From the IMG/VR virus record IMGVR_UViG_3300044580_000088, positions 1 to 40,766 of that record: 40,766 nucleotides of DNA; one strand, written 5' to 3'. Of the stretch, positions 2-33,751 are shown one piece after another (within the stretch, counting starts at the first letter, position 1; the number at the start of each line of letters is the position of its first letter). This DNA is from a virus. Its lineage: Duplodnaviria > Caudoviricetes. Made by a program: the position numbers and the translations under genes. The notes beneath the pieces are model-generated. The model did no database searches, was not told where the DNA came from, and worked only from the letters and a program-made list of their open reading frames with translations.

Positions 2-604
2 CGTTCCCAGGCTATTGAGGGCCGATTCGATTGACGGGATCGTATTGGCCACCAGATCGTCGCGCAGGGCGTCGGCGCTTGCCGGCGAGTCTCCAGGGTC
101 CGTGATGTCATGGGTCGTGGATGCGTCTGCCTCGTGGGCTTGTTGTTTGAGCTTGAGGCCGTCCGAATCTACAGCGATCCCGTAGTTTGGCTTCAGCTTC
201 ACGCTGAGGCCATTGCTGTCCAGAAGGATCCCGTGGTCTGCGTACACCTTCGCCTTGAGCCCACCTGTTCCAAGGACGAGGCCCGGGTCGGTGTCCAGAA
301 GAATCGACGTCCCATTGATGTCAACCTGGAGTCCTGAGTTAGTAGCCAGCTTGATCGAGATCCCTGTAGTGGATCCGACTTGCAGCCCACCGGTTTGGCT
401 GAGCTTGATGTTGAGATATCCGGACGCCTTCTCGAGTCCATACAAAATGTTCAGCGTCAGGACATCGTCGGACCCGAAGCTGAAGACGTCACCAATCTTG
501 GCGCTCCCGATCCCATCCTCGAACATCTCGGTAAGGATGATCTTGACCTTCGCGACGATGTCCTCTACGGTTTCCCCTGAAATCGGTACAGGCAGTTGCG
601 GCAT
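2..604 (-). CDS. Fibre protein with triple beta-spiral-like repeats (3' end runs off window)
   Basis: Not in the ORF track. ATG overlaps the TAA of the giant gene (TAATG) and the frame is open to the edge: MPQLPVPISGETVEDIVAKV...LNIKLSQTGGLQVGSTTGISIKLATNSGLQVDING...SALNSLGT. Confidence 0.8.
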   Translation of the reverse strand, partial: MPQLPVPISGETVEDIVAKVKIILTEMFEDGIGSAKIGDVFSFGSDDVLTLNILYGLEKASGYLNIKLSQTGGLQVGSTTGISIKLATNSGLQVDINGTSILLDTDPGLVLGTGGLKAKVYADHGILLDSNGLSVKLKPNYGIAVDSDGLKLKQQAHEADASTTHDITDPGDSPASADALRDDLVANTIPSIESALNSLGT

Positions 605-3600
605 TATTCGTACAGTCCTTTCAGTTCATTGGCTAGGCCCCTCATTGGCTTGGAAGGCCTCCTCGGGCGGCCCCGCTCGCGCAGGGCTCCGGCAAGGTTT
701 ACCTGGAGTTGCGGACGGCCTTCTGTTACGACCCGGGCGTTCCAGGCCTCGACCTCATTGCGAACAGCGTCCATTTCCTTCTGGTTGCCGTCCCGCTGGG
801 CGTTGGCATATCGGCTTGCCCACTTCGCCCTCTTGGCTGCCACGAATTTCGTAAGGTCTTCGATCTTCTCGTTGATGTCCCAGGCCTTTGAGCTGCTCAG
901 GGGCTGGAATCCTGCGGCCTTTCCAATGGCTTCCGGCAGGGATATTCTCCTGGCCTCCGATTCGCCGGGCAACGTCAGCGGCTGGCCGCTGATGGTATAG
1001 GCGCCCTCCCCGTAAAGCCGTGCCGCCGCAACCGCATTCGCGATGAAGCGCGGTGCCATGGCCTCCACGGCTCGGGACGCATCCCCGTACTGGTACGCCT
1101 CAATGGCCTTGGCCGGATCGTCGATGAGTATCGAATATGGCACGCCGACCAGGGATGCAACGGGGTTATCCGGGTTGTGAAACTCGATGGAGAGCGACCC
1201 GCTGATATCCACTCCCAATGCGGCCGGTGCCCCATACACCACGAGATCGCGCCAGAGGTTCCGGTTGGCTCCCGTCGATTCCGGCACCATCTCGCGTGCA
1301 GCACTTTCCGGATCCCGGCCGAGCATCCGCCTGGAGATCCGGCTTATTGTGCCAAAGAACGGCAGGCTCGAGATCCCCCCGAGGATCAGCAGGGCCAGCA
1401 GGGATCGCATGATGGCGCGGTATCCTCGTCTCTGCTTGGCCATCCATCCCAGCAACTGCAGGTATTGGTGCGAAAAACTCTGCAGAGCATAGGCAGATCG
1501 TCCAAACTTCGCGCCCACGCTCGGCCCTCTGGCCCAGGTCGGCAGGTTTGCCTTGCCCATGACGAAGTGCGTATCGTTGACGATCTCCTCGGCGTAGGCC
1601 TTGGCCTTTTCGTAGGGCCAGGGCTTCCCCTTTTCCATCCCGTACCGCTTCAGCGTGTCCGGGTTCACGATCTTGCCGTCCTTGGCGATGCGGTACGCCG
1701 CGAGGCCAGTGGAGATACGGTTGAACCGCTCCGGCAGGGCCATGGTCAGCCCCAGGACATCAACGGCCCGGTTTAGCGTGTTGCCGATCCGGGTACCGAT
1801 TCGCCCCTTGATCTCCTGGTTGAACTGGTCCGATGCCACGCCCTCGAGCACGAGCTCAGTAACGACCCTGAGTTCGTCTGCGGAGAGCCGCTTGCCCTTG
1901 GTGATGGCCCCGACAATAGCTTTCCGCGCTGCCGAGAGGTACATCGCGCCGGCCCAACGGGCATCGATTGACATGCGCGGGACGGCGGCAACCACGTTCT
2001 GCGTCAGGTTCACGACGCCGCTCTTGATGACGCCGGCAAGATACTTGACGTAGATCGCGGTGCGAAGCGTGTCGGCCGCCGCGTCCAGGCGATCCGCATT
2101 CGACAGGGCGTCCCGGACATAGTCCGAGGCGTACTTCCAGCGCCGCGGCTCCTTCTTGGCCCGCAGGTCGCGGAGAACCTCGGAGTGCTTCCTGGATGCC
2201 TCCATCTTGGTCAACCAGCCGTTGAGCCCCGCGAAGTATTCGTGCAGGATCCGCTTGATGTCGCGCTTCTCGTGTCCGGGAATGTCGCGGCGCCGGATCA
2301 TGTGGGCCCCCCATCCCCTGGACTTGATGACATCCGCAATGGCTTCTGGCATGGCCTTCTCAAAGAGCTGTCGAGCGGCCGGATCCCCGACCCTCTCGGC
2401 CGCGGCGTAGATGACCTGCTCCATGGCCTCGATGGGAATGGGGTAATCGTAGATTTCGTCAGGAAGTTTCGTGACAGGGGCAATCTTCCATTCTACGGCC
2501 TCGGGGTACTGAGGCTTGATCTTCGCCAGGAGCCTTTCTCCCCTGGTGCTTACCTTGGGCGTGTCGTAATAGTGGCTGCGGTAGACAATCTTTCCCTCCG
2601 CATCATAGCCACGGATGGACCAGTTTCCGTAGCGGACATGGGGAAAGTAGTTTGGAATCTGCCCGATGGACTTCCGGAGACGCTCGATCACGGAGTCCTC
2701 GATGTCCTTCATGCGACTCTGGGCGTTGAATGCCTTGGCCAGAGAGCGGTCAAGGCCTTTCCGCAGGGCGACATATACGTCCGCGATGTCCTTGTATTTG
2801 GTCTTTTCCAGGGCCGCCTTCATCTGGTCGAAATGCTCCTGGTTGAGCGCCCTGATTCCCGGACGCCCCTCGGCATTTTTCCCCCAGACGAAGCGGGACG
2901 CCGTCACGCCCTGCAGTTGCTTGCCGTCGAGCTTCCAGATCAGCTCGATCAGGAGGTCGAGCTTCTTGCCGCGGAGATCGAACACGGGCTTGACGGCCTC
3001 GAGATCCTCGTGAATGGCCTTTGTTCTCGACTTGTTGCGCTCCAGCTCAATACTGACCAGACGGGCCAGATCCTCCTCGCCCGGTTTCTTCGACAAAAAC
3101 CACGGGTTGTGCCACAGCTCCTCGATGACAGATATGTCCTTTTGGGGAGCGACGGTAATGCCGCGCTTGATCCGGTTCCAGGCCCTGAGCAGCGAAGTTC
3201 CGGACAGCGGGGCCCCCTCTGCGGCCGGCTTGCGGGTGGCATACTTGGCCGGAGGATCCAGCTCCAGCAGCCCGTCCGATGCGGCGCGTAACACCTCGTC
3301 AACAATCGTAACGTGCTCCTTGGGCTTGATGGCGCTGCTCACCAGGAGCGACGTTGCCAGCTCAACCTGCTCAACGGGGCTTTTCTTCAGGAAGCTTGCC
3401 GAAACGTCTACGAGGCCTGATCCGCTCGGACGCGCCACGCCCTGGAGAATCTGAATCGTCTGGGGGTAATAGTCTCCCAGGTCCGGCTTGCCGAAGCCCT
3501 TTTGCTTGGCGTTTTGCGCCATCGAAATCCCCTTGCGCCCCCTCGTTCCAGAGTTGCCGAGCCTGAGGAAGCACTGAGGGCATCCCATCTCGCAGAACGG

Positions 3601-6600
3601 CTCGTCGGTGACGCCAACAATGGGGGCGCCGGCGGCGTCCGGGTAGGTGAGATGCTGGCAGTTTCGGCAGCTCGGGCATCCCTCATGGAACAGGTCGCAG
3701 TACTCGATGGGCCCGGGCTCGATGAGATCCAGCACGGCCGCATCCAGTTGCCGGCTCGTCGGCCACCACCAGGTGCCCCCGCGCTCCTCGATGAACGCCT
3801 TCTCGTCTTTAAGGGACGAGAGGTAGGCCTCGGCCTCTTCTCTCGTTTTAAATCCCTGCAGCCCTTTTTTGCGGCTGTTGACGATGGTCAGCACATTGTA
3901 TGAGCTCGGCCCGTACAGGTTCTTTGCCGTATCCCATCCGTTGGCCCGGAACAGCGCGGCCATGGCATCCGGCTTGCGCGGAACCCATGGCGTCCAGTCC
4001 ATCCAGGTGCGCGGGTCTTCGCCGCGGGGACGCGGGTTTTCAATCCACCAGTCACCGAATTCCGGATGCTTGGGGTCAGTAGGAACGAAGTTCGTGAAGC
4101 GGGCCAGGGACCATGGATGCTTTGCCCGGTACGTCGTGATCAGGACGTGCGCCCCGATCTCGCGGGCATAGTTGATCGCCTTTGCAACGGCCCTCGTTAC
4201 CTCCGGGGATCCGTTCAGCACGGGCTTGACCCGCACGGCCCTGATGACCGAGTCCCAGCTCGGGTCGGGGCGCTTGAAGTTTGTCAGATGGGGATTTCCC
4301 GTTACCATCAACGGGTAGGAGAGATTGGCCGGGCGAGGTCGAGAGAGGTCGGGTTGAGTTATCGGCAGATTCAGAAATACTTGCGGTTCTAGCCCGCGAG
4401 CGGTTTCAGGAATGGCCGTCCTCTCGACCCCTCCCTCGATAAGTCGCCCGGTTTCTGCGGATGCCTTGCCCTCTCTTATAGCAGGATAAAGGATTTTGTC
4501 AAGCCTTTCTCTGCGGATCCCGGTGACCGCCGGCGTATTGAGCACGCCCTCGCGGATGACGACCTGGGACGGTTCGATCTTCGGCAGAAGGGCAAAGTTG
4601 CCGATCTTGCGGATCTCATTGTATTGCTGGAACTTTTCAACGGCTTTGCGGATGCCTGCCTCTGACACGCCAGCGCGCCTGGCTTGGCGCACGAACTCCT
4701 GGGCCATGGCCTTGGTGATGGGCCTTGAAGCCATAATGGCGTCAGTGATGGCAGGGACGCTGACCTCTTTTTCGCCGCTGAAGTTTCTGATCGCGTAGTC
4801 TGCCGCATCGCGGAAGATCGTCTTGCCGGCCTCGGTGGCGTCCCGTCGTGCGGTCCGTTCCCAGATCTTTCCAGAGCTGACCTTGTCGTAGACGGTCCGG
4901 AAGCTGGGGAAGAAGAATTCCTTCAGGCGCTGGAAGAAATTGCGGATGCGCTGGTAGAGGTTCTGCAGCCACGTCTGGCGTTCCCGCCTCTCTCGCTTCC
5001 CGGCCTGCTCGTGCGCCCAGTTGCCGTAGTCCTCTGCCGCGGCCTCCTCGGATCCGAATTCTTCCTCGAGGCGCTTTCGCTCCCCGTCTGTCATTACGAG
5101 GTCCCAAGCCGCATGGAATGCTTCGTGGTGCGTATCGGCGGGGGAGGAGAGATCGGTGTAGGTCAGGATCCCGTGGGGGCCCACTTGGCGCCAGGATGCG
5201 GCGGCCACCACGCCAGGCCGCAAATCTTTGCCGGTTGCGGCCTTGTAGTCCACGGGGTTGATGATGATCTTGCTTTTCCAGTCCACCAGGACCTTGGTCC
5301 CGTTGGGCATGGTGAGCATGAAGGCCCAGCGCGGGCCCCTCTCCGTTTGGAGGAGCTCGGCAGGGCCTATCTCTGCGGAAGGGAATGCGGCCCGGATAGC
5401 CTTGTGCGCGGCTTCCTGGCTTTCGGCGATGCTGTCCGGCAGCGGATTGCGCTCGATGATCCCGATGATCTCGTTCAGGATCCTGTCGAGCGGGTCGATG
5501 ATTCCGGGCAGTTCGGTCTGGACGTAGCTTACAGGAGTTGCTTGTCCGGCGGACTCTTCATGTATTGTCGCATCTCCGCCAGCGCCTCTCTCTGGTGCTG
5601 ACGGAGCTTTTCCTGCTCGAGCTCGCTCAATAAGCACGTCTCTGTTTGCGTTGATCGTCCTGGCTTCGGACTCGGTGAGGCCTTCGGGCGGGACTTTTTC
5701 CCCGTAGATAGTTTCAAGGACGGCTGGGAGATCATGTTTGAAATTCTCCTTCAGTTTGCCGAGGGTGTCAAGGGATATTTTCAGGTTCGAGCCGAATGTG
5801 CCCTGGGCCATGGCGTGGATCCCGATGACGGTGGCGCCGTTGTTCTCCAGGTATCCTTTCAGGCCGGCCAGGGTGGATCCCGTGGTCGTGACATCATCCA
5901 CAATGACGGCCAGCTCGCCGGTGACCTTCCCGCCGAATTCGGGCTGGCGCATCAGCCGCTCCATCGCCGTGGCGCCGGTATGATGCACGATGTTTTTTTG
6001 GATGACATCCGTATTCACCGGCCAGCCCGTCAATTCGGAGATATAGGCGGCCATGGCCAGGGGGATCTGGTTGATGCCGCCGGCCTCGATCGCGTTAACG
6101 GGGTAGACCACGACGCTACGGCCCGCATAGGCCATGGCCAGGGCCCGGACCTTTTCGGCGTTCATCAGGTCCATGGCAAGGTTCGCTGCCGCCTTGCGAT
6201 CCCCGCTCTTGGCCGCCTCGTAGTCCTTGTGGCCGCGCATCTTGTTGTAGCCGGTGTGGATTACGGCCTTGGCGGTCCGGTCTGTCCAGGGCGTGCGGGT
6301 TGCGTACTTTTCCGCTTTTGCGGTGGCTCCAGGGACCTCAAAATCCCCCCGCAACGGCATCACTATGGCCTTCAGCTCGCCATCGACGCGGAATTGCACG
6401 GGCTTGCTGAATTGGTTTTTGCTGTCTTCGACTTGGCTGACCCGTGCGTCCGGGAAATGGCTCCGGATTAACTTGAGGTAATCTGCATTGATCGCGACTG
6501 TCTTGCCAGCAGCATCGGCGAAGACGGCCTGCTGCGAAGCCGGCGACTCCACTCTCGCCATGACGTAATGCAGCTCCCGTCCTGGCTCCTTGGGCAAAAC

Positions 6601-9600
6601 AGCCGCATAATTCGGCGGGTCGTATTCTTTCCGCTCCTTCGCGACATGCTCTCCCGCCATTTTGGCTATTTCGTCATCTGTCTTGTCCGGCTCGCATTTG
6701 CGGAAGAATTTTGCGGCTTTCTGCTCCTGCCTGCGCCAATAGCCATCGCGCAGTTTCTTCGCGATCTTCTCGTCGATGATGAGCCAATGGCCATTTGACG
6801 CATACGGTCCGCTCTTGTCGCTGCTCAGTCTCAGACTTTCGTCCCAATCTCTATCAACCGTGTACTTCTTGGCGAGATCGGTGACCTCCTTTTCGGAGAT
6901 CTCCGTGGAGATGATCGGTCCGTCCTCAGCCAGGCTTCTTTTTTCGGCCGGAGTCAAGGCCGAAAAGTTTTTGCCGTGCTTTTTCTGGGCGAGATCGTCA
7001 AGATCGGAACGGCTGAAGTTCCGCGCCGGCTTCTGCTCGGCCTGCTTTTTAGCCTTGGCGGCCGGCGCTGGCGCCTTGGCGACATCAATCGCCGTGTCCA
7101 GGCTGACGCCCTTGCGGAGCTGCTCGAGGGCGACTTTGCGCCGTTCACCGCTCGGCACGCCCCTTCTGTCCAGGTATGCAGAAACAGCCACGAAATGGTC
7201 CTTGACCGTGACGTAGTCGGAGCCAAGGTTCATCCGGTCGGATGCGATCCCGGCGCCGATATGATCGGCAACCTCTTGGGGCAGCCCAGGGAATTCCTTC
7301 TTGACAGACCCGGAATACGTCCGGGCCCACTCCTCGAGTTCGACCTTGGTGCGCTCGAAATCAGCCATCTCGGGCTTTTTTGTTTCCGCTGGACCGGCCC
7401 ATTGATTGTTTGATTTCAGTGCTTTTGTCGTGCCAATGGCTTTCTCGATAGCCTTGTCTCGAGAGTATTCAAAATCTATGAGCGTCGATTTTTCTCCCTT
7501 GCTGTCAATGACCGGATACTTGATCGTGTAGGATGCTTCTGCCCCTTTCCCTCTCTCAATAATGGTAACGCCGGCCGGGATCTGCGGATCTTCGATAACC
7601 TTTCCGCCCGCGGCATCCTGCCGACGGATTTCCTCTTTGCTCTCTGGTCCCGCTTTCTTTTCCGGCATCGGAGAGGCGGGGACTTTTTTGGTCCGGATCC
7701 CTCTCTCCCCAGAAGGCCCCTTGCTACCTTCGATCTTCTCCTGCATGGCCCTGGCGTCGCCGCCGGCGTCAGCTATTTCATTGTAGGTCGCCCTGTAAAC
7801 ATCCTGCAGAGCATCGAGCTCATCGGCCAGGCGGTTCCTCTTTGCTCCCTTTGCTGCCTCAACGGCCTTGATCAGTCCCTGGATGGCTTCCCACCGGCCC
7901 GCCTGCTCTGCCTCTGCAGTCGCCATCAGGTCCTTCAGATTGTCGCCTTCGTATCTGGACCCACGCCTGGCATTCTGCCCTCTTCCCTCCAGGAAGCGCT
8001 CAATCTTTCCGAGCTTGGCTTCCAGGCGGCTGATCTCCGGTTGACGCTTGGCCATCTCAGATTCAAGGACATGCCTCTCCTGGGCCCTGGTAAGGTTCGC
8101 CTTGCCGTGTACGGCCCTTTTTCCCCTATTGCTGCTGGCGACGGCATGGGCCCTCGTCTTGAGATCCTCGATCTTCTTCCGGATCTCGTCAGCCTGCTGC
8201 CGCAACCGCTCCGCGTGCTCCTCTTTCCCCTTCTCCCGAGCGGCCTTCTTCTGCTCATCGGTCAGTCCGCGGGGGGCCGGAGGCGCAGGCGTTGTTTCCC
8301 GTGAAACCTCCGGCGCTTTTCTGGCCAGGATGTTCTGAACGACCTTGAGCGTCTCTTTCTGCGGTGTCGGGATGGAGACTTCCGGCAGGGAGCCAAGGGC
8401 TTCTCGCTGGCCCTCAGCGAATTGTTCTTCGGAGATCCTGTCTTGGATCCCTTTCCTTGCGGCCCCGCCGCCAGCGATCCACTTTGCGAGAGCCTCGGCC
8501 TCCTTTTTCTTCCCGGCGGCCATGAGTCTGCTGATCTGGAGCCGCTCGGCTGCGTTGGGCTGTACCCTGCCGACAGATGCGGCCAACCCCTCCTCGTAAG
8601 CCGCCCCCTGGGCGGAAAGTTTTCGCCCAGCCTCAGCCTCTGGCCCCTCGATGAGCCTGCGGCCGGCCGGGCCTTCCACCATTCGGCGCCGGCGCATCAG
8701 TTCGTCGAGTTTGGCCTGGTGCTCCGGGGAGAGTCGCGCCCGCTGCTTGAGGATGAAGTCTTTGGAGTAGGGCTCGCCCTTGAGCGTGAAGGGGGCGTCA
8801 GCCATGGTGAACCCGCGGTCTACGCGGGAGCGCTCCTCAAGGGACTGCCGCATGGATTCAAGCGGCTGATGCGTCCATCTGCGTTCCCGTTCCGGGGCCA
8901 GGGGGGCCTCGGGAAACACCTCGTCGCGCAAGGGGTGAATGACCTGCGGCTCCGGTTCGGCGAGACGCTTGCCCCGCACTTCAGACACTCTGGCCCTGGC
9001 AGGCCCCATGTGCTCGGCCGTCACCCTCGCATAAGGATCGATGTCCAAGGCCCGCTTGAGCTGGCCCCACCACGGCTTGTCGGCCACCTTGACGAGCTTC
9101 GTTGCCGGCAACTCGATGGTGAGCCCGTTGAGCACGGCGTTCCGCGCCTGCCCCTCGGGGATGCCGATGTCCTGCATCATGTTGTAGAACTCGGCATCAT
9201 GGGCTTTGGATCCGCGGGTGAAGTAGTCGCGCAGCCGCTGGGCGGGGATCTCAATGGTAGCCCCAGGAGCGACACTCTCCATCCTCTCCCGGAGGTACTT
9301 TTCTTTAAATGGCTCGCTCATCTTGTCCCAGCGGGCGCCCAGCTTGCGTCCGGCAAAGCCCAGGGCCGCGCCCTTGGCGACGAAGTCAATGGCTTCCGTG
9401 AGCGCCACGACGTTCTTGCCGGCTCCTTCCGGCAGCAGCTCTGACAGTCCGCGCTGGTTCAAGAATTCGTAGGGCTGGCCCGTGGCGGCGGAGATGGCTG
9501 CAGATTCGGCCTCGCCAAGTCCGGTGAAGCCGGCTATGGCCTTGAGCGTGGGCCATATGTGTGACTTGAGCGCACCAGCCGGACCCGTTGGGATCGGCAG

Positions 9601-10431
9601 GATCCCACCGGAAATGGCGGCATTCATCAGGAAATTGTAGTAGTCGGACTCCTTGACATCTCTGGCTCCGAACACTTCCTTTGTCAGGCGCTCTCTCAGT
9701 TCCGGATCAGCTTCGATTTCTGATCTCCTGCGTCCAGTAGCGGCCGCCAAGGCATCGATGGCGCTCGCTTGTGCCCTCATGGCACCTTGGTCCTGGAAAA
9801 GGCTCTTCAGCTTGTCCAGGGCCGTTTCAGGAGGAGTCGCACTAATAGCCTCTTGGGTGGTTGGCGGAGTGGTGATCGTCTGGAGGCGCTGTAACAGGGC
9901 TCGCTTCACAACATCCTCTGCCGATACCATGCCGTGCTTGGTGTCATAGGATACCGTCGCGATGGTGTTCTCGCCGCCCATGAATCCAAGGATCCGATTG
10001 ATGTAGTTCTCCGTCTCCACGGGCATGACGCCATGGTTGACTCTCTTCTGGCCGGCGTTGTAGGCCCACAATCCCTTTTCGACGCTGCCGCCGTTTTGTT
10101 CGATTAGTTTGCTGAGGTATCTCGCCCCGGCTAAGACGTTTTCGGATGGGTCATGCGCGTTGGTGACGCCGAGCTCCCTGGCCGTTTCTGGCATGATCTG
10201 CATGAGACCAACGGCCCCCTTTGGCGAGACGGCATTCGGATTGTAGCCTGATTCGGCTCTGATGACGGCGTGGATTAGTTCCGGGTCAAGCCCAGTCTCC
10301 TTTGCGGCGTAGTTGACGATTCCGTTGAAGGGACGTCCATCTGAACTTTCGTTGGCCCCGGATCCATAGATCTCCTCGTCTTTGACTCCGCGCCGGCGGA
10401 GAACTTCGCTGACGATATCAAAGCTGGACAT
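604..10431 (-). CDS. Giant polyvalent internal virion/DNA-ejection protein (SLT, clamp-like, PRTase, zincin peptidase, Cys-cluster domain, helical C-terminal domain)
   Basis: 3275 aa. SLT motifs AVIRAESGYNPNAVSPKGAVGLMQIMP and AYNAG; PRPP loop VIVDDVTTTGST; HHEAFH; CEMGCPQC. Last gene of the ejection cluster. Confidence 0.9.
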   Translation of the reverse strand: MSSFDIVSEVLRRRGVKDEEIYGSGANESSDGRPFNGIVNYAAKETGLDPELIHAVIRAESGYNPNAVSPKGAVGLMQIMPETARELGVTNAHDPSENVLAGARYLSKLIEQNGGSVEKGLWAYNAGQKRVNHGVMPVETENYINRILGFMGGENTIATVSYDTKHGMVSAEDVVKRALLQRLQTITTPPTTQEAISATPPETALDKLKSLFQDQGAMRAQASAIDALAAATGRRRSEIEADPELRERLTKEVFGARDVKESDYYNFLMNAAISGGILPIPTGPAGALKSHIWPTLKAIAGFTGLGEAESAAISAATGQPYEFLNQRGLSELLPEGAGKNVVALTEAIDFVAKGAALGFAGRKLGARWDKMSEPFKEKYLRERMESVAPGATIEIPAQRLRDYFTRGSKAHDAEFYNMMQDIGIPEGQARNAVLNGLTIELPATKLVKVADKPWWGQLKRALDIDPYARVTAEHMGPARARVSEVRGKRLAEPEPQVIHPLRDEVFPEAPLAPERERRWTHQPLESMRQSLEERSRVDRGFTMADAPFTLKGEPYSKDFILKQRARLSPEHQAKLDELMRRRRMVEGPAGRRLIEGPEAEAGRKLSAQGAAYEEGLAASVGRVQPNAAERLQISRLMAAGKKKEAEALAKWIAGGGAARKGIQDRISEEQFAEGQREALGSLPEVSIPTPQKETLKVVQNILARKAPEVSRETTPAPPAPRGLTDEQKKAAREKGKEEHAERLRQQADEIRKKIEDLKTRAHAVASSNRGKRAVHGKANLTRAQERHVLESEMAKRQPEISRLEAKLGKIERFLEGRGQNARRGSRYEGDNLKDLMATAEAEQAGRWEAIQGLIKAVEAAKGAKRNRLADELDALQDVYRATYNEIADAGGDARAMQEKIEGSKGPSGERGIRTKKVPASPMPEKKAGPESKEEIRRQDAAGGKVIEDPQIPAGVTIIERGKGAEASYTIKYPVIDSKGEKSTLIDFEYSRDKAIEKAIGTTKALKSNNQWAGPAETKKPEMADFERTKVELEEWARTYSGSVKKEFPGLPQEVADHIGAGIASDRMNLGSDYVTVKDHFVAVSAYLDRRGVPSGERRKVALEQLRKGVSLDTAIDVAKAPAPAAKAKKQAEQKPARNFSRSDLDDLAQKKHGKNFSALTPAEKRSLAEDGPIISTEISEKEVTDLAKKYTVDRDWDESLRLSSDKSGPYASNGHWLIIDEKIAKKLRDGYWRRQEQKAAKFFRKCEPDKTDDEIAKMAGEHVAKERKEYDPPNYAAVLPKEPGRELHYVMARVESPASQQAVFADAAGKTVAINADYLKLIRSHFPDARVSQVEDSKNQFSKPVQFRVDGELKAIVMPLRGDFEVPGATAKAEKYATRTPWTDRTAKAVIHTGYNKMRGHKDYEAAKSGDRKAAANLAMDLMNAEKVRALAMAYAGRSVVVYPVNAIEAGGINQIPLAMAAYISELTGWPVNTDVIQKNIVHHTGATAMERLMRQPEFGGKVTGELAVIVDDVTTTGSTLAGLKGYLENNGATVIGIHAMAQGTFGSNLKISLDTLGKLKENFKHDLPAVLETIYGEKVPPEGLTESEARTINANRDVLIERARAGKAPSAPERGAGGDATIHEESAGQATPVSYVQTELPGIIDPLDRILNEIIGIIERNPLPDSIAESQEAAHKAIRAAFPSAEIGPAELLQTERGPRWAFMLTMPNGTKVLVDWKSKIIINPVDYKAATGKDLRPGVVAAASWRQVGPHGILTYTDLSSPADTHHEAFHAAWDLVMTDGERKRLEEEFGSEEAAAEDYGNWAHEQAGKRERRERQTWLQNLYQRIRNFFQRLKEFFFPSFRTVYDKVSSGKIWERTARRDATEAGKTIFRDAADYAIRNFSGEKEVSVPAITDAIMASRPITKAMAQEFVRQARRAGVSEAGIRKAVEKFQQYNEIRKIGNFALLPKIEPSQVVIREGVLNTPAVTGIRRERLDKILYPAIREGKASAETGRLIEGGVERTAIPETARGLEPQVFLNLPITQPDLSRPRPANLSYPLMVTGNPHLTNFKRPDPSWDSVIRAVRVKPVLNGSPEVTRAVAKAINYAREIGAHVLITTYRAKHPWSLARFTNFVPTDPKHPEFGDWWIENPRPRGEDPRTWMDWTPWVPRKPDAMAALFRANGWDTAKNLYGPSSYNVLTIVNSRKKGLQGFKTREEAEAYLSSLKDEKAFIEERGGTWWWPTSRQLDAAVLDLIEPGPIEYCDLFHEGCPSCRNCQHLTYPDAAGAPIVGVTDEPFCEMGCPQCFLRLGNSGTRGRKGISMAQNAKQKGFGKPDLGDYYPQTIQILQGVARPSGSGLVDVSASFLKKSPVEQVELATSLLVSSAIKPKEHVTIVDEVLRAASDGLLELDPPAKYATRKPAAEGAPLSGTSLLRAWNRIKRGITVAPQKDISVIEELWHNPWFLSKKPGEEDLARLVSIELERNKSRTKAIHEDLEAVKPVFDLRGKKLDLLIELIWKLDGKQLQGVTASRFVWGKNAEGRPGIRALNQEHFDQMKAALEKTKYKDIADVYVALRKGLDRSLAKAFNAQSRMKDIEDSVIERLRKSIGQIPNYFPHVRYGNWSIRGYDAEGKIVYRSHYYDTPKVSTRGERLLAKIKPQYPEAVEWKIAPVTKLPDEIYDYPIPIEAMEQVIYAAAERVGDPAARQLFEKAMPEAIADVIKSRGWGAHMIRRRDIPGHEKRDIKRILHEYFAGLNGWLTKMEASRKHSEVLRDLRAKKEPRRWKYASDYVRDALSNADRLDAAADTLRTAIYVKYLAGVIKSGVVNLTQNVVAAVPRMSIDARWAGAMYLSAARKAIVGAITKGKRLSADELRVVTELVLEGVASDQFNQEIKGRIGTRIGNTLNRAVDVLGLTMALPERFNRISTGLAAYRIAKDGKIVNPDTLKRYGMEKGKPWPYEKAKAYAEEIVNDTHFVMGKANLPTWARGPSVGAKFGRSAYALQSFSHQYLQLLGWMAKQRRGYRAIMRSLLALLILGGISSLPFFGTISRISRRMLGRDPESAAREMVPESTGANRNLWRDLVVYGAPAALGVDISGSLSIEFHNPDNPVASLVGVPYSILIDDPAKAIEAYQYGDASRAVEAMAPRFIANAVAAARLYGEGAYTISGQPLTLPGESEARRISLPEAIGKAAGFQPLSSSKAWDINEKIEDLTKFVAAKRAKWASRYANAQRDGNQKEMDAVRNEVEAWNARVVTEGRPQLQVNLAGALRERGRPRRPSKPMRGLANELKGLYE

Positions 10432-10443
10432 GCGGCGGGCCCC

Positions 10444-11451
10444 CTATCGAGTGACTTTTCTGCGGACTACGGGTTCACCTCTATTCTTCATGGACTTCTT
10501 GAGTTCCTGGCCGAGGTCTGTTTCGTCCAAGGCCCAAGCGATCTCCTCTGGTGCCCACTTCTGCTTATAGGCCTCGAATATCATGTCCTCGAGTTCCTGG
10601 GTAGTCTTGGCTCCTCTCAGGTATTTGGTCAGGGGAGTCAGGGATCGTCCACCAGTCTCGTAGCGAGTCTTGTATCCAGCGTCGAGCCAGCGCAGATCCC
10701 GCTCCATGTCCTCTAGGAGATCGGCATAATCCTGTTTCTTTTCCGGCAGGACTCCCCCAGTAATCGGGTCCGTGAACATCTTCATCTTCATGCCGTAGTG
10801 TTGGCGGATGTCATCGCGCAACTTCGACTTGTCGCGCTTCTCCGGGGCGTTTGCCTTGGCGTTTGCGGCCCTTTCTTTGAGCATGGCGGCCACCTTGGCA
10901 AGCTCAAGCCTCTCGGCCATGGATGCCTCCATCAGGCGCTGCTTTGCATCGTAGAGCTGGGCAAGTTGATCGGCCTTGATTTCGCTTGCTGATCTAGGTA
11001 CGAGATATTCTCTCCTTGTCGTCGGAGAAGCGATCGCTGTCACGCCCGGGACGCCGGATTGGGCCGCGTCGATCTGGGATGGGGTCAGGGGTCTTTCCTG
11101 GCCGGGAGCCACGATTTCCCTGAAAGGAAGATCTGATCCCGTGATCTCGCGGAACGCCTTGTTGGCCTCCTCCATGGGGACTTGGGGATCGAAGCCTCCT
11201 CCTTGGTCTTTTGCCTCTGCCGCCATCTTAAGAGCGTTCTCAAGCTTAAACTTGAGATTCTCCCTGCGCGTCTTCTCGATGTCCTTTTGGAGCATCAGCT
11301 CCTTCAGCTTCCTGTAGTCCTCGAGCTTCTCCATCTCCAGCTTGTGGTCCATGACCTTGAGGGCCAGCGCAACCGTTCCCTTTGCCGGGCCCTCCATGAG
11401 GCCCTCCTTGAGGCCGGATATGAACGGGGTCTGCGGCTGCATGTACTGCAT
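10444..11451 (-). CDS. Putative internal virion/ejection protein (helical, charged)
   Basis: 335 aa, coiled-coil-like, SD GGAGG, directly upstream of the giant ejection gene. Confidence 0.65.
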   Translation of the reverse strand: MQYMQPQTPFISGLKEGLMEGPAKGTVALALKVMDHKLEMEKLEDYRKLKELMLQKDIEKTRRENLKFKLENALKMAAEAKDQGGGFDPQVPMEEANKAFREITGSDLPFREIVAPGQERPLTPSQIDAAQSGVPGVTAIASPTTRREYLVPRSASEIKADQLAQLYDAKQRLMEASMAERLELAKVAAMLKERAANAKANAPEKRDKSKLRDDIRQHYGMKMKMFTDPITGGVLPEKKQDYADLLEDMERDLRWLDAGYKTRYETGGRSLTPLTKYLRGAKTTQELEDMIFEAYKQKWAPEEIAWALDETDLGQELKKSMKNRGEPVVRRKVTR

Positions 11452-11460
11452 AGCGACCTC

Positions 11461-12036
11461 CTACGAAATGAAGCGATTTGCGGCCAGCGACCGAAGGAAT
11501 CTCCCGAAGCCCGTCGGCGCATTCTCGGTGCCGGGGCCCTGCGGGAGCGCGCCGCCCATGACGCGCATCAGGCTTGCCAGGATGCCGTCAGGGGTCATTT
11601 GCCGCTTCGGGAACACGATGCTCCCGATACTCTGGCTGGACGGGGCCTCAACGGGAGGCGGCGCGGGGGCCGCCGGCGTTGCCGGCGAAGGTTCGGCAGG
11701 CGTCACTCGCGGCGTCGCCGGGGCATTGGGGTCTGTCGCCCCGCCTCCGTAGATGTATTTTCCCGTCCGGTTGTCGAAAACCCTATAGCCTCCGCCGGGC
11801 AGTTGTTCCGGAGCGCCAAGGCCGCCGATAATGTCAGTCGGCCCCTTTCCTGATGCTGCCGGCGCATTGCTGCCCTGCGGCACGCCGGCATTCCCGGCCG
11901 GAAGGGCCTGCAGGGCCGAGTCGCGCACAAGCGTCGCGATGGGGATGATGTTCTTCCCCCATCCGATGGGTTGGCCAAACGACGGATCTTGAACCATCTG
12001 CGGAATGAGCTTCGTGAGGCTTGTAAAAAAACCCAT
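11461..12036 (-). CDS. Putative ejection/virion protein, Pro/Ala-rich
   Basis: Start MGFF at 12036 after AGGAGGTG; lies within the ejection cluster. Confidence 0.6.
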   Translation of the reverse strand: MGFFTSLTKLIPQMVQDPSFGQPIGWGKNIIPIATLVRDSALQALPAGNAGVPQGSNAPAASGKGPTDIIGGLGAPEQLPGGGYRVFDNRTGKYIYGGGATDPNAPATPRVTPAEPSPATPAAPAPPPVEAPSSQSIGSIVFPKRQMTPDGILASLMRVMGGALPQGPGTENAPTGFGRFLRSLAANRFIS

Positions 12037-12048
12037 GGCGTTCACCTC

Positions 12049-13053
12049 CTATGCGGCGCCAAGGATGCTTTTCAGCATCGTCCAGTTGAGCAGTTGCGAT
12101 CCGGCGCTTCCAGCCAGATTCGCCAAAGAGTCCAGGAACCGCCACCCGCCGCTCTGGGTCGGAGATGCAGCCGTGGCCCAAGCCCTAAGAACTTCCGGGC
12201 TAAGATTGGACGGCTCGTAGGTGGAGTAGAGCTTTTTCACGGCTTCGCCCATGGCTTCCGAGTAGGCCTCGTCACCTAGGCGCTCGTACTCTCCTCCGCC
12301 TGTGCCTCTGGCAGCCAAGCTCGCTCCTGCCCTATTCCTGCGCCCTTGGAGCATCGTCTGCAGTTCACTCTGGACCCCCTTCATGTATTCGCCCCTCTTC
12401 TCCGGCGTCCAGGTGACCTCGCCAACGTAGCGGTTAGTTGCGTTCTCCAAGGCTTCTTTCGTCTTTTCCTCCATGCTCGCCTTGTTGAATCCGCTCAGAA
12501 GGTCAGCTCCCAGACCGAGGCCTAGTGTCGGCAGGATCCAGCTTGATAACCCGGACCCAAACCCTCCGGCTCCGGCGCTTACTGCAGGAAGGTTCACGGC
12601 CAACCCGCCTGTGCCTGAAGTGAGTGCTCCAGAGGTAAGGCCGATTGTGCTTAGTGAACTCGGCAGGGCTGCTTTGCCTCCGAACCACATGGAGTCTCCG
12701 GGGCCGAACAGCGACAGGAGGCTCCCGGATCCGCTTGTTCCTGTTCCGATGCCAGTAGCCTCGGCAAGATATGGCAGCCCGAAGTAAGATCCGGCCGCAA
12801 TTGCTGCCAACTCCGGCCCTGAGAGCCCATGGATTTCCTTTGGGATGGCTCTCTTGATTTCCCTGGGAACGATGTTCAGGTCACCCAGATCCTTCCCACC
12901 AATGAGAAACTCTACTGGCTCCTGAACAAATGGGCGGATCTCCTTTGGTATGGCGTTGTGCAGGAACCCTTCCACCGGCTTCGTGACGGTGTTCACGACA
13001 TTTCTGATTTCCTTCGGAACTATGGAGTGGATGACGGACTTAAAAAACCCCAT
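12049..13053 (-). CDS. Putative DNA-pilot/ejection protein with Gly-rich hydrophobic segments
   Basis: 334 aa; G/L/S-rich membrane-like stretch, ASLAARGTGGG motif, SD AGGAGG. Confidence 0.65.
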   Translation of the reverse strand: MGFFKSVIHSIVPKEIRNVVNTVTKPVEGFLHNAIPKEIRPFVQEPVEFLIGGKDLGDLNIVPREIKRAIPKEIHGLSGPELAAIAAGSYFGLPYLAEATGIGTGTSGSGSLLSLFGPGDSMWFGGKAALPSSLSTIGLTSGALTSGTGGLAVNLPAVSAGAGGFGSGLSSWILPTLGLGLGADLLSGFNKASMEEKTKEALENATNRYVGEVTWTPEKRGEYMKGVQSELQTMLQGRRNRAGASLAARGTGGGEYERLGDEAYSEAMGEAVKKLYSTYEPSNLSPEVLRAWATAASPTQSGGWRFLDSLANLAGSAGSQLLNWTMLKSILGAA

Positions 13054-15629: not shown

Positions 15630-16757
15630 CTACCTCTTGAGCGGAGAGATGGAAACTATTTTTTCCTTGAACGGCCGTCGGTCCTTTTTCTCCTTGGCCT
15701 GGGATACGGCTGACTGGTAGAGCTCCTCGTAGTAGACGGCCCGCTCAAACTCCTTTGATGCCTGGTTGAATGTCCTCAGCAGGTCGCTAACCACTCCCCA
15801 ATACAGAGCTTTGTGGTAATTTCGCGGAATCTCTGGATAGGTGTAGTCATTTCCCTGGCTTGCGTCTGCCGCCGTTTCGTCCCATTTGAACTGCACGGGG
15901 AACGGGACGTACTCGATGAGGAGCGTAGAGGCCGGGACGGTGATGTCGCCCAGGGCCCCGTGACGGTATCCGTAGATGTAGACCTCGCGCTCGTGGTCGA
16001 CCCGGACCGCATACTCGCCGGCCAGGACAACGTAGAGGTCGCCGGCCTGAAACGTATTGAGCGTTCCGCCCGTGAACCCGGCCGCACAGGTAATCGTGTT
16101 CGTCGCGACGCCGGTGATCAGGCCGTAGCAGCCGTCCGTGATGTTCCGGATCCACATGCCGGCCGCCAGGCCATAGTCCGTGAAGGTTGTAGCGGAATCC
16201 TGGCAGGTCGTCGATGACCCTGCCGTCGCGGTGCCGTAGATCGACTGCTGCGTGGTGCCGAGCGCCGTGCTGACCGCGATGCCGGTGTCGTCACCCGTGG
16301 CATAGGCCGTCCCCGTGGTGTCCGGCGGAGGGTAGACGCCGATCAGCGGGATCGAGCCGTATGACCCCCCGTGGTAGACCAGCTCCGGGTCCGAATTTTC
16401 GGCCGTCAGCCAGCCGTTGCGGTTGGCGTCCAGCCAGTCGATGTCCCGGACATCGAGATCAACATAGACTGTCGACGAGCTGAAAAACTTGGCGTTAATG
16501 ACGCCATCGTCAATGCAGTTCGCGGGCAGCCTGTAAAGCCGCTGGCCGGCGATCATGGGGATCAGGGCCATCCGTCGCAGGCAATGCGTCTCCTGAACAA
16601 AAGCGTTCTGCCTGTCATTGAGCTTCTGGCGGATGAGCCATTTGGGATAGACCGAATAGCTGACGGTGGTGCCCGATACCTGGCCCATTTCCCATAGCAC
16701 CAGCCTCTCGAGGACATCCAGGTGCAGTCCTCCGTAGACTCCTGCCGTGTTCGCCAT
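15630..16757 (-). CDS. Head-tail adaptor protein
   Basis: AGQRLYRLP, IGVYPPP and PEIPRNYHKALYWG motifs typical of podovirus adaptors; position after the capsid genes. Confidence 0.7.
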   Translation of the reverse strand: MANTAGVYGGLHLDVLERLVLWEMGQVSGTTVSYSVYPKWLIRQKLNDRQNAFVQETHCLRRMALIPMIAGQRLYRLPANCIDDGVINAKFFSSSTVYVDLDVRDIDWLDANRNGWLTAENSDPELVYHGGSYGSIPLIGVYPPPDTTGTAYATGDDTGIAVSTALGTTQQSIYGTATAGSSTTCQDSATTFTDYGLAAGMWIRNITDGCYGLITGVATNTITCAAGFTGGTLNTFQAGDLYVVLAGEYAVRVDHEREVYIYGYRHGALGDITVPASTLLIEYVPFPVQFKWDETAADASQGNDYTYPEIPRNYHKALYWGVVSDLLRTFNQASKEFERAVYYEELYQSAVSQAKEKKDRRPFKEKIVSISPLKR

Positions 16758-18473: not shown

Positions 18474-19400
18474 TTAGGCCGGGACGTTCCCGAACCAGTC
18501 TCGCTCGTCCGCGATTTCGGCCGACCATCTCTGGTCCGCCTTGCACATCCAGTCGCCGGTCTGGAAGTCCTGCTCGCGGCCGAACCTCGTTTTGCGGCGC
18601 CAGAAGAAGATGATCCCCCGGCCGTCGAGCTGGAGGTACCACGCATCCGTGTCCGTCAGGTGCGGCCAGGACTTCAGTCCGATGTTGCGGCCGCTCTTGG
18701 CGTAGGCGTTGATGGCGCGGTTCGCCGTGTCCGGGCGGTCCGGGCTCTGGAGAATCTCCCTCGCCTGCTTCTCGAGCTGCGGGGGGAACCAGAGGTTCTT
18801 GATCTTCTTCTTGATCTTGTACTGCCGATGGTTGAACTGGTTTTCGGCAGCCACCACGGCGGCCCAGAAGCTCGAATAGGTGAGATCCGAGGCCGTCAGC
18901 TTGTTGGAGAAGGTCGAGCTGTCGAGACGCGGATGGTCCGTGGCGAACAGCGCCTTGGACTCCCTCGTCGTGTGGTAGGTGGTCGAGGTCCCGTAGACGA
19001 GGAACCGGGCCATCTGGCTCTCGATGTTCTCGCTCATCGCCTCGCCAAGGTCGCGGAACATGGACGAAAGCTCGTCGGCATTCCCGCCACCACGGAGGTC
19101 GTAGAGGTTGTCGTCGATGGCCTCTTCCGTGAGTCTCACGGCGAGGGCCCACACGCTATGCACCCAGGTCTGCTTGCCGCCCTCGATCTGGGTGTCGTAG
19201 GTGATGGATGCTCCCTCCCCCTTCCTGACCGGCAGGCCGAGGCCGGAACGGATGGAGTCCTCTTCCTTCTTCTTGGCGGATGTCTTGATGGTACACATGT
19301 CCTCCCACATGGACTCCGCCCTGCTGGTGATGTAGGAATCAACGGCGAGGGCGAAGAGGCCAGGGACGTACTCGTTCAAGAATTTCGATCTGGTCCACAT
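18474..19400 (-). CDS. Major capsid protein, Mu gpT-like HK97 fold
   Basis: KGEGASITYD, LTEEAIDDNLY, LFATDHP, LWFPPQLE, WPHLTDTDAWYL motifs. Confidence 0.9.
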   Translation of the reverse strand: MWTRSKFLNEYVPGLFALAVDSYITSRAESMWEDMCTIKTSAKKKEEDSIRSGLGLPVRKGEGASITYDTQIEGGKQTWVHSVWALAVRLTEEAIDDNLYDLRGGGNADELSSMFRDLGEAMSENIESQMARFLVYGTSTTYHTTRESKALFATDHPRLDSSTFSNKLTASDLTYSSFWAAVVAAENQFNHRQYKIKKKIKNLWFPPQLEKQAREILQSPDRPDTANRAINAYAKSGRNIGLKSWPHLTDTDAWYLQLDGRGIIFFWRRKTRFGREQDFQTGDWMCKADQRWSAEIADERDWFGNVPA

Positions 19401-20700: not shown

Positions 20701-21621
20701 TTATCCCTCCACGGTTACTGAACGGGTCTTGGCGTTCTTGAGGATCCGCTGGTAGATCTCCTGTCCCTGCTTGGACAGTCCGATCCGCTTCGCAACGTCC
20801 CTCACCTCGGGGCTCGCGGGCTCCGTGTGCCGATCATCCGCATCAACCTTGTGGGTCTTGCCCTTCGGCAGATTGATTGCGTTGATCTTTTCTCTTCTGC
20901 GATCCATCGGTTTTCCTCCTCCTTGGGCTTCCTTCTTCCCCATCTCGTAGGCCGCCTTGACGGTGTTCGGCAGGCTCAGGAGGTTGTTGAGCCCGAGGGC
21001 GAGGATGTCACCGAAGGGGTGATCTGCCAGCATGAGCTCCTGTTTTGCCTTGTCCACGCCAAGACGAAGCTGCGATCCTTCGACTCCAAGCTCTGGGAAG
21101 TTTGATGACAGGTAGTCATCGACTTCTTTTTTCTTGGAGACGAGCTCGACCTGGTCCACGGCCTTTGCCTGTGCGCTGCGGGCCGTTTCGTCAGCCATGT
21201 AGCTGAGGATGTTGAACAAAACGTCCGGATCGTCACGATGCTCCGTCCACAGTTCCTTGAGCTGGGCCTTCGTGAAGGCCGGTTCCCCGCCCTTCTCGGC
21301 CGCCTTCTTCTTCGACTGCCGCTCCTCGTGGAGAGCCTTGTTCAGGTTGTTGATGTGCTCCTGGGCCCTGGCGAGCTGTGCCGCAAGCGCTTCGGGGTCC
21401 AGGTCCTTGTCCTTGCCGGCCTGGGCATCTTTCTTGCCCTTCTCGCCGGCGCCGCCGTCGTCTCCGCCTTCATCGTCCCCCTCGAGGGACACGACGGAGA
21501 GCAGGTCGCCTTCATCGTCCCCCTCGAGGGACACGACGGAGAGCAGATCTCCATCATCATCTCCGGATACGCCGGAGTCGTTTTCGTTGAGGAGATCCCG
21601 TTCATCTTCTGGCATGATCAT
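20701..21621 (-). CDS. Scaffolding protein
   Basis: Acidic N-terminus, coiled coil (ALHEERQSKK), C-terminal VAKRIGLS...Y; between portal and MCP. Confidence 0.75.
   Translation of the reverse strand: MIMPEDERDLLNENDSGVSGDDDGDLLSVVSLEGDDEGDLLSVVSLEGDDEGGDDGGAGEKGKKDAQAGKDKDLDPEALAAQLARAQEHINNLNKALHEERQSKKKAAEKGGEPAFTKAQLKELWTEHRDDPDVLFNILSYMADETARSAQAKAVDQVELVSKKKEVDDYLSSNFPELGVEGSQLRLGVDKAKQELMLADHPFGDILALGLNNLLSLPNTVKAAYEMGKKEAQGGGKPMDRRREKINAINLPKGKTHKVDADDRHTEPASPEVRDVAKRIGLSKQGQEIYQRILKNAKTRSVTVEG
21465..21546. repeat. 42-bp in-frame tandem duplication
   Basis: CGCCTTCATCGTCCCCCTCGAGGGACACGACGGAGAGCAG occurs twice, encoding DLLSVVSLEGDDEG x2. Confidence 0.95.
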
Positions 21622-23818: not shown

Positions 23819-24026
23819 CGTAGGCCTCCATGTACTTGTCGAAAGGCATGACGTTTTTCAGCGGCTGGCGCTTGGCCTGGACCCCGTCGATGGCCGGCAA
23901 CTGCCTGCCGTCCAGTACCGTATGGACCCACTTGCCGCCCTTCAGCACCGAGAGGACATAGGTCCGCTGGTATCTCGCGTGCATTTCGCGGATCTGCTCC
24001 AGGGTGAACTTCTTGCCGGACATCAC
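23811..24026 (-). CDS. Hypothetical protein
   Basis: Overlap-coupled ORF, 71 aa. Confidence 0.6.
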   Translation of the reverse strand: MMSGKKFTLEQIREMHARYQRTYVLSVLKGGKWVHTVLDGRQLPAIDGVQAKRQPLKNVMPFDKYMEAYGA

Positions 24027-24256
24027 TGGGCTCCTTTCAGCCGCGCCAGGATTGCCTCGAGCCTGTCGAGAACCGCGGCGTCGGGCTTGTTGGTGAAGAA
24101 GTCCCGGAAGATCCCGAGCCCCAGGTACGCGACGGCCACGAGCTGCACGATCTTCATCTGGTATGCCGGATCGATCTCCGGCAGCCCGAACACGGCCAGC
24201 AGGGCTGAGATGTTCTTCACGGTTCCGATCAGGGTGACCTTGGTGTCGTTGTCCAT
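24023..24256 (-). CDS. Putative holin (two hydrophobic segments)
   Basis: DTKVTLIGTV...LGIFRDFFTNK; SD GAGGAGG; lysis cluster. Confidence 0.6.
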   Translation of the reverse strand: MDNDTKVTLIGTVKNISALLAVFGLPEIDPAYQMKIVQLVAVAYLGLGIFRDFFTNKPDAAVLDRLEAILARLKGAQ

Positions 24257-24266
24257 CGCCTCCTCC

Positions 24267-24713: not shown

Positions 24714-24787
24714 CGCGGCCTCCTGGTGGAGGGGAGGGGAGGCTGCGGACTCCCCCTCCCTGGGGGATGAATGAGGAGGTAGGGGAT

Positions 24788-24949: not shown

Positions 24950-24965
24950 GTCTGGGCCTCCTTCC

Positions 24966-25310: not shown

Positions 25311-25330
25311 TTCTCCGCTCCTTTCGTTGT

Positions 25331-25437: not shown

Positions 25438-25450
25438 TGTCAGAGATCAG

Positions 25451-25703: not shown

Positions 25704-25706
25704 GGC

Positions 25707-31861: not shown

Positions 31862-33751
31862 TCATCTCCGTATCGTGATCTCGTAGTCCTGGTCAGCGAG
31901 ATCGCGGGCCCGCTGCCGAGCCAGCCAGCCGCCGATCCCCGTTTCGTTCCCCGTGCCGCCGGGGGGCAGGCCTTCCGGCAGTTGCCAGCCGGCCAGGGAT
32001 ACGCCCTGCCGATGAGCCGGCTTGTACTTTTCCTCTTCCTGCGCGGACAACTGGCGCGGCATCAGGGTCATCATGATCGCGGCCATGCCGGCCGTATCGA
32101 CCCGCTCGTCGTGGCAGCCGAGCTCTGCGTTGAGCTTGCCGCCCTTTTCCACGAAGGTCCGCATCTCCGAAACGGTTTCCTTGCAGCGGATCTGCAGTTG
32201 CCCCGTGGAGGCCAGCTCGTGCAGCCGGTCAACCATGAGCGGCTTGGTCTTCTTGTTGGTCATCCATCCGGGCTCTCCCGGCTTGTGCTCGAAGAGCGGA
32301 TACCGGGCTGCCTCGAGGTCCCGGACGACCGTGTAGCCGTGATTCATCAGCTCGACGCAGGCCGGCGCACGATAGTACAGAGCGCCGATCATCTCCACGA
32401 GCTCTGCGATCACCCCATAATCGACGTGCCCGTGCCACTGGGCGGCCTGGACGCCGGTGCGGTGGTTGTAGACATCGATGCAGGTCGGGTCAGGCTCGGT
32501 CTGCCGCTGCTCGTGCGACGGCTTGATCCCGCCGGCCGAGTCCACGGTCAGGAAGTACGTCATGTCCTTGCGCGGCTTCTCCCAGATCTTCAGGTGGCCA
32601 TTGGGATTGGGGCGGATCTTGGTCAGGCCGTTGCGGATCACGGGATCCCCGACCAGGATCGGATCCTTGCAGCCGGCCTCGAGGTTGTCACAGAGCAGCC
32701 GCCCGAAGACGTTGGCTCCTTGGGACAGGAACGCTTCCTCGACCGTGGCCGGATACTCCTGGCGGAAGATCTCGAGACGCCCGTTGCACTTGTTCTCGAT
32801 TGCCCAGGCCCGCCAATGCATTTGCTCGAGCGACAGGCGGAACCGCTTCATCAGCCGCAGGGCCTCGGACTCCTCCCAGGTCATCGTTTCCTTGTTGAGC
32901 ACCTTGCGGTGCAGCTCGACCTCGAACCATTCCCGCTGCCTATCGGAATCGAAGGGCTTGGTGTAGCGCTCATGGACGAACCACGGGATGAACACTAGGA
33001 TCCAGTCCCACGCCGGATTGTGCCAGGCGTAGGTGATGCCGTCTTCCTGGTAGAACGGGTGGCGTCCCTCGGCGTAGGCCTTGAACACGTCGGACTGGAA
33101 GCGGTTCCCGTAGCCGTTGGCGGTTGACTCGAAGATCACCTCGGAGTCCGTCGGCGGGTCGGGGACGCAGGACAGCAGCGAGGTACAAAGGGTCTCGGGA
33201 TCCGGCCAGTACGCGCACTCGGACCCGTGCAGATAGTGAATCCCCTGGGACCGGCCGGCGTCCAGGTTGCGGGCGCAGGCCAGGGTGTATTCGCTCTTGA
33301 GCCCGCGGCCGTTTTCCGTATCGAAGATCAATTCCTTGGAGTTGGACTTCCGGGTTGCCGGCGGGAGCGGGTTGCGCTCGTGGAAGAGCTTGGCCATGGA
33401 GTAGAGCTCGTCCGTTGACGAGATTTCGTGTCCGACGATGAACGTGTTCCGGTTGAAGCGCGTCGAGGTGAGCCAGTAGAACCTCCCCTCCGTGTAGGTG
33501 GATCCTCCAAATCTCCGGGACTTCAGCAGCAGGGCCCGGACGCCCCCCATCTCGCGCTTCTGCTTCTCGAGGCAGTTGTGCAGGATCTCCTGCCCCCGGT
33601 TGAACCGGAACGGGAGGATCTGCTGCGTGTTGTGATCGCGGATGAAAAGGCAGTCCTGGGCGAAGGCGCGGAAATCCTGAACGTAGCGCTGATAGGCAGT
33701 CGCCAGCGCGTCCAGGTTGCTTTGCTTACTTGCCGTCGCCGCCTTGCCCAT
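31862..33751 (-). CDS. terL: Terminase large subunit
   Basis: Walker A LKSRRFGGST, Walker B YLHGSE, FESTANG, FRQEYP, nuclease LTVDSAGG and HDERV. Confidence 0.93.
   Translation of the reverse strand: MGKAATASKQSNLDALATAYQRYVQDFRAFAQDCLFIRDHNTQQILPFRFNRGQEILHNCLEKQKREMGGVRALLLKSRRFGGSTYTEGRFYWLTSTRFNRNTFIVGHEISSTDELYSMAKLFHERNPLPPATRKSNSKELIFDTENGRGLKSEYTLACARNLDAGRSQGIHYLHGSECAYWPDPETLCTSLLSCVPDPPTDSEVIFESTANGYGNRFQSDVFKAYAEGRHPFYQEDGITYAWHNPAWDWILVFIPWFVHERYTKPFDSDRQREWFEVELHRKVLNKETMTWEESEALRLMKRFRLSLEQMHWRAWAIENKCNGRLEIFRQEYPATVEEAFLSQGANVFGRLLCDNLEAGCKDPILVGDPVIRNGLTKIRPNPNGHLKIWEKPRKDMTYFLTVDSAGGIKPSHEQRQTEPDPTCIDVYNHRTGVQAAQWHGHVDYGVIAELVEMIGALYYRAPACVELMNHGYTVVRDLEAARYPLFEHKPGEPGWMTNKKTKPLMVDRLHELASTGQLQIRCKETVSEMRTFVEKGGKLNAELGCHDERVDTAGMAAIMMTLMPRQLSAQEEEKYKPAHRQGVSLAGWQLPEGLPPGGTGNETGIGGWLARQRARDLADQDYEITIRR

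Follow-up and report, generated by a model that had tools for sequence, protein, structure and literature searches.

What could a phage gain from a single protein of 3,275 residues that strings together modules of entirely different kinds? The question is raised by the IMG/VR virus record IMGVR_UViG_3300044580_000088 (Caudoviricetes), whose 40,766 bases (completeness 88%, CheckV) were analysed as a whole (hereafter the window), and by its giant gene, P0001. An earlier note, made from the sequence alone, had described this gene as an injected, self-processing enzyme toolbox for host takeover. The reading frame is indeed open throughout and the modules follow in the order given there (Table 1); a plus-strand reading of 604-10431 was dropped because of its many stops. 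We conclude that P0001 is very probably an ejected polyvalent protein. It is also probable that this modular protein is packed in the head, ejected with the DNA and brings its middle modules into the host as ready-made early effectors. Architecture, conservation and modular exchange can be read directly from the compared proteins; injection, action before gene expression and host takeover we infer.

Several biochemically disparate domains share the chain: SLT, PRTase and PLxRFG are recognised by library match, and three further modules accompany them. The SLT domain and the PRTase were found as predicted, the former with PDB sequence matches that include the SLT part of T7 gp16 (E 0.0014), the latter with a Pfam score (26.9 bits) barely over the cut-off of 26.3. 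The predicted HExxH peptidase holds at the motif level: HEAFH at 1769 and EEAAAE at 1795 match the zincin pattern of Iyer et al. (PMC5512222), and the segment has no match in Pfam or PHROG or among PDB sequences. This motif is kept in 8/8 orthologues and in giant P0011, with similar motifs in P0090 and P0009. The other catalytic-type residues (Glu60, D1512-D1513 and CX3CX2C) are likewise kept in 8/8 orthologues. Other parts of the earlier description needed redrawing. The long low-complexity region proved to be two: a variable part, residues 718-1175, which shows 0-68% identity in 6/7 orthologues (the seventh, P0086, is from nearly the same phage), and a separate conserved part, residues 160-717, with 48-100% identity per 100-residue bin and local hidden Markov model matches to close orthologues only. 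A helical piece of the linker (825-956) recurs in the distant giant P0004. The helical C-terminus of about 870 residues is present and already has a name, since NCBIfam NF032893 (PLxRFG/tail-700) covers residues 2595-3255 with 162.8 bits against a curated cut-off of 100. A literal P-L-x-R-F-G motif is absent (no P..RFG match in P0001), and the matched region has PHVRYG at its start.

Comparison with relatives shows how these modules move. Seven full-length orthologues (3,002-3,271 residues) keep the module order; they are closely related, share mosaic blocks that are 100% identical, and do not count as independent evidence of function. Two orthologues carry inserts that are possibly further cargo modules, one of about 270 residues in the variable linker of L011 (open reading frame 6128-11866) and one of about 135 residues between PRTase and zincin in P0084 (residues 1500-1634). 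The domain content of proteins sharing the C-terminus was also compared, as the earlier note had proposed. Eight loci found with the C-terminus (L003-L010) match P0001 only over residues ~2430-3260, at 32-36% identity, and all eight encode giants. Their cargo is wholly different, consisting in the five scanned loci of MuF-C with methylase, SNF2 helicase or DdrB-ParB. Because giants with different cargo have this C-terminus in common, we regard it as a shared chassis on which the cargo varies. The L008/L009 giant has a DdrB-like ParB domain on the PLxRFG chassis, and L003 contains a stretch resembling phospholipase D that weakly matches anti-phage models. P0004 (5,678 residues) contains a weak clamp-like piece, the seven-cysteine module (53%), the PRTase (72%) and a related C-terminus in a different order. 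Overall, each module moves independently of the others: in the virion gene blocks of phages, it occurs in giants that differ in chassis and order. Together with the disparate domains and the zincin motif, this exchange bears out the assignment to the phage polyvalent proteins; it also means that the proposed combination is not one fixed system, and places the novelty in two modules rather than in their combination.

The first of these is the seven-cysteine module, most likely an Fe-S (radical-SAM-like) module, in line with the Fe-S enzyme of the earlier note, with C2245/2252/2255/2258 (CX6CX2CX2C) and C2280/2284/2287 (CX3CX2C). It represents an unannotated viral family, seen fused into unrelated giants (47-53% identity in distant ones) and as free-standing proteins of 220-260 residues. 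All seven cysteines are kept in 60/60 free-standing short-type proteins. Scans of the clamp, zincin and cysteine segments against Pfam and PHROG returned nothing credible. No tblastn match was found for the cysteine segment, the clamp segment or a free-standing family member among 50,697 phage records, nor for another free-standing member among 72,556 plasmids, and an Atlas search with the module gave no usable match. In a sample of 401 genomes from the putative host phylum the family appeared in two, the seed genome and one weak partial match, so that it is essentially viral. Free-standing genes on contigs L018, L019 and L020 have archaeal-type PCNA, RFC-like AAA, Hjc and QueF as neighbours, which suggests that archaeal viruses carry the family too. 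In giant P0007, a 2H phosphoesterase (residues 123-224; weak Acb1 anti-CBASS match, E 0.0037) stands directly before the seven-cysteine module; this arrangement hints at a counter-nucleotide context.

The second is the beta-clamp-like module, for which the support is weak but concordant. About 165 residues of P0001 match DnaN, and only over ~141-370. In a weak alignment (probability 27-48), 10 of the 18 peptide-pocket residues (subsites I and II) are identical to those of E. coli, 3 are conservative, 3 changed and 2 unaligned, in line with the pocket claimed by the earlier note. A three-domain, ring-forming clamp is not present in this module, and a full-clamp reading was rejected, about 165 residues being too short for a ring. 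Free-standing clamp remnants were seen only as Atlas clusters, and none of 1,167 candidates carried the clamp segment in a longer protein. Residues 1201-1300 are 41-53% identical in 6/7 orthologues and diverge faster than neighbouring regions. Clamp ancestry of residues ~1200-1365 can be stated with high confidence. The predicted binding of a clamp-motif partner (0.38 versus 0.01 for the control) is weak and possibly a memory of the solved complex, and we put the chance that the pocket still binds partners slightly below even.

In the working that we propose, the PLxRFG C-terminus would be the constant chassis for packing and ejection, and the SLT domain would open the peptidoglycan. The clamp pocket, PRTase and Fe-S module would then act early in the cytoplasm. 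The clamp remnant is predicted to be a ring-less pocket binding host proteins with clamp-binding motifs, as decoy or recruiter, and the PRTase would handle phosphoribosyl pyrophosphate (PRPP) and nucleotides or bind incoming single-stranded DNA. The seven-cysteine module is predicted to hold a SAM-type cluster on CX3CX2C and an auxiliary metal centre on CX6CX2CX2C; its substrate would most likely be a nucleotide or nucleic acid and its effect a blunting of host defence. A more far-reaching version seems improbable as a whole, namely that some viruses load a permuted two-cluster viral radical SAM family into their ejection protein, performing radical chemistry, from injection onwards, on DNA or on a nucleotide signal of the host, while the ring-less pocket diverts clamp-dependent host polymerases or repair proteins.

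The middle modules might instead serve the phage rather than act against the host: once ejected, the clamp pocket would recruit host polymerase or repair proteins to the incoming genome, the PRTase would bind or pull single-stranded DNA and the Fe-S module would modify or repair phage DNA, jump-starting replication. The only replication gene that the phage encodes is of the initiator type, so that it needs host replisome parts, and DNA-uptake roles for such PRTases are discussed in the main text of Iyer 2017 (PMC5512222). In some of the 15 loci scanned, free-standing cysteine-family genes lie near an RFC-like clamp loader, PCNA, Holliday-junction resolvase, RuvB, QueF or DNA methylase. However, no neighbour is common to these loci, a pocket without a ring could not encircle DNA, and the faster divergence of the clamp module fits a host-specific conflict without proving it. 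We hold such a phage-serving role to be rather unlikely.

How firmly can the seven-cysteine module be called a radical SAM protein? Its C-terminal end aligns by hhalign (83%) with the beginning of radical SAM enzymes of the Tes/GDGT-MAS type, and radical SAM barrels are the best fold matches of its model, at low Z (maximum 5.1). Foldseek gave no match at E<=0.001 against PDB or BFVD, the module has no match to the radical SAM family PF04055, no GGE-type SAM motif was evident by eye, and a rotation test against Tes was flat. The canonical order is also missing: CX3CX2C follows a beta-strand at the C-terminal end of the module, behind CX6CX2CX2C, instead of standing at the N-terminal start of the barrel, which we read as a permutation. 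The module might instead be a domain of TIM-barrel-like or alpha/beta type in which two sites bind Zn or Fe, its Tes match stemming from cysteine spacing. This is improbable, given that the match takes in the strand before CX3CX2C together with C-F-A and the helix after it, scores about twice the best shuffle, and concerns a motif intact in 60/60 short-type and 19/19 parsed giant copies, and that radical SAM proteins head the VIA wide, pdb_via and BFVD lists. Our best reading is a two-cluster radical-SAM-like enzyme in circularly permuted form; a permuted, radical-SAM-derived Fe-S fold is fairly likely, and actual radical SAM catalysis somewhat doubtful. In giant P0010 (residues 438-587 and ~850-1236), a canonical radical SAM domain (PF04055 3.7e-14) occurs together with the seven-cysteine module. 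The Gp88 profile PF17338 matched 0/25 family members, and a genome search for Gp88 comparators yielded weak matches of another family and one broken Gp88-like start.

Finally, the published model for the class would have the zincin cut the chain and free the modules, and we consider self-cleavage of P0001 an even bet. That the chain works uncut, as a structural ejectosome or tape-like conduit with passenger or relic ligand-binding modules and a zincin without processing role, is quite improbable, since its catalytic-type residues are conserved and the seven-cysteine module stays similar in distant giants, even though modules come and go and N4 virion RNA polymerase, ArdC and TraC1 are packaged or transferred intact despite their MPTase, according to the main text of PMC5512222.

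Table 1. Features of the giant protein and of the virion genes in the window.
Feature	Position	Strand	Basis
Giant polyvalent / ejection-type protein gene (P0001)	604..10431	minus	ATG start, open frame, 3,275 aa
SLT lytic transglycosylase, aa 36-134, catalytic Glu60	10030..10326	minus	Pfam PF01464 4.5e-27 over 39-133
Conserved N-terminal region, aa 160-717, one mildly hydrophobic segment 341-359	8281..9954	minus	No family match
Hypervariable charged/coiled linker, aa 718-1175	6907..8280	minus	Swapped between kin
Beta-clamp-like remnant, aa ~1200-1365, domain II-III pocket side	6337..6834	minus
PRTase, mobile-element type, aa ~1385-1600, D1512-D1513	5632..6279	minus	phrog_22413 2e-39 over 1387-1597
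Zincin-like metallopeptidase (MPTase) motif domain, aa ~1700-1850	4882..5334	minus	H1769 E1770 H1773 + E1795/E1796
Seven-cysteine module, aa ~1950-2315	3487..4584	minus	Predicted partial barrel, CX6CX2CX2C, beta-strand + CX3CX2C-Phe
Conserved C-terminal chassis, aa ~2430-3275, hydrophobic segment 3011-3029	607..3144	minus	Contains PLxRFG/tail-700
Three small co-oriented genes (335, 194, 334 aa) directly upstream of the giant gene	10444..13053	minus	No PHROG/Pfam match
SU10-type head-tail adaptor, podovirus-like tail block	15630..16757	minus	PF24175 3.8e-9
Major capsid protein	18474..19400	minus	phrog_371 2e-7; PF25209 9e-11
Terminase large subunit	31862..33751	minus	phrog_2, phrog_24361

The giant gene is the final large gene of the virion block. 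The three small genes upstream of it, which have counterparts at the same place in relative L001, may encode small ejection proteins, judging by position and Gly/Ala-rich make-up. Since no sheath, tube or tape-measure gene was recognised in the 30 open reading frames scanned, the phage is likely short-tailed and podovirus-like. Its candidate tail nozzle gene (13071-15626) has a GC of 0.52-0.53 versus about 0.6 and a weak DNRLRE-like insert at residues 167-314 (E 0.0017); the product has 851 residues here and 658 in L001. A candidate scaffold gene (20701-21621) contains a 42-bp duplication (2.2 copies, 21465-21558). A lysis-like block (24023-26371) comprises a cell wall hydrolase (PF07486, 25898-26371), small hydrophobic open reading frames and DUF1353. 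At 40563-40766, a 15-bp tandem repeat (13.6 copies, 92% matches) runs off the record end and codes, in a minus-strand frame that stays open, for a repeat of five residues.

As to the host, there are only hints, namely a 100% match in a metagenome-assembled genome (MAG) of Syntrophaceae and a 99% match in one of Methanotrichaceae. One 2.9 kb MAG contig lies wholly within the giant gene, and the other contig ends that were read looked phage-like by eye, with no clear host flank. Both families are anaerobes, a setting that would be favourable to a virion with an oxygen-sensitive cluster.

Polyvalent proteins can be seen as an inventory of the items that phages deliver ahead of any gene expression, and two entries here are absent from the libraries and text searched. 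A permuted radical SAM fold, if true, would add a new topology to a superfamily that has received much study, and it would account for the failure of standard motif-anchored profiles to detect the family; its free-standing members make the idea directly testable. Similarly, an injected clamp-pocket remnant, if true, would be a novel means of disturbing the host replisome or of borrowing it.

How does P0001 compare with known systems? No identical architecture was found in the literature, the supplement of Iyer 2017 lying outside the search, in agreement with the earlier note. Title searches on clamp-like modules of virions, on a phage radical SAM protein of permuted order, on radical SAM domains of polyvalent proteins and on Gp88 together with radical SAM found no title describing such modules, most subscription papers lying outside them. 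The main text of PMC5512222, its supplement again outside the search, contains 'radical SAM', 'clamp', 'Fe-S', 'iron-sulfur', 'sliding', 'DnaN' and 'PLxRFG' 0 times. The C-terminal domain is that of the PLxRFG (NF032893, tail-700) or DarB-like giants of Lastavirus, PEp14 and Bcep22-like phages. Of 50,697 cultured-phage records, 52 match it, the 30 listed among them being only 21-27% identical and mostly DarB-like, PLxRFG or hypothetical. In the accessible text of PMC9505181 and PMC10269572, the giants of two such phages are treated as uncharacterised or DarB-like, and that of CSP3 also carries an SLT and stands after structural genes (PMC10269572). Unlike these giants, P0001 has a clamp remnant, PRTase and seven-cysteine module as cargo; a DarB antirestriction reading was dropped, as DNA methylase and SNF2 helicase, present in relatives L005, L007 and P0090, are absent from it. 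T7 gp16 likewise has an N-terminal SLT and a gene that comes last among the large ones of a short-tail virion block, but the similarity is confined to the SLT (34-133) and P0001 is 2.5 times longer, with enzyme cargo.

Among the modules, the clamp remnant shares domain II-III motifs and most pocket residues with bacterial DnaN, yet spans about 165 residues versus 366, has a helical hairpin insert and sits in a virion-block protein; domain I and the dimer interfaces are absent, so that it presumably forms no ring. With Tes and GDGT-MAS (MJ0619)-type radical SAM enzymes the seven-cysteine module shares an adjacent auxiliary cysteine motif, beta-strand, CX3CX2C-Phe-Ala and helix. There, however, the motifs precede the barrel rather than follow it, and the auxiliary site has three Cys and a His in place of four Cys (CX6CX2CX2C); rubredoxin and lipid-binding parts are absent from the module, the free form of which has about 230 residues. 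The closest class remains the polyvalent proteins, equally very large multi-enzyme products of virion-block genes, for which the main text of PMC5512222 catalogues lysozyme (here SLT), PRTase and zincin MPTase domains and proposes MPTase autoproteolysis, some members staying uncut. The toolbox class is thus already described there, with self-processing as a proposal, and what P0001 adds, relative to the libraries and paper text searched, is the seven-cysteine module and the clamp remnant.
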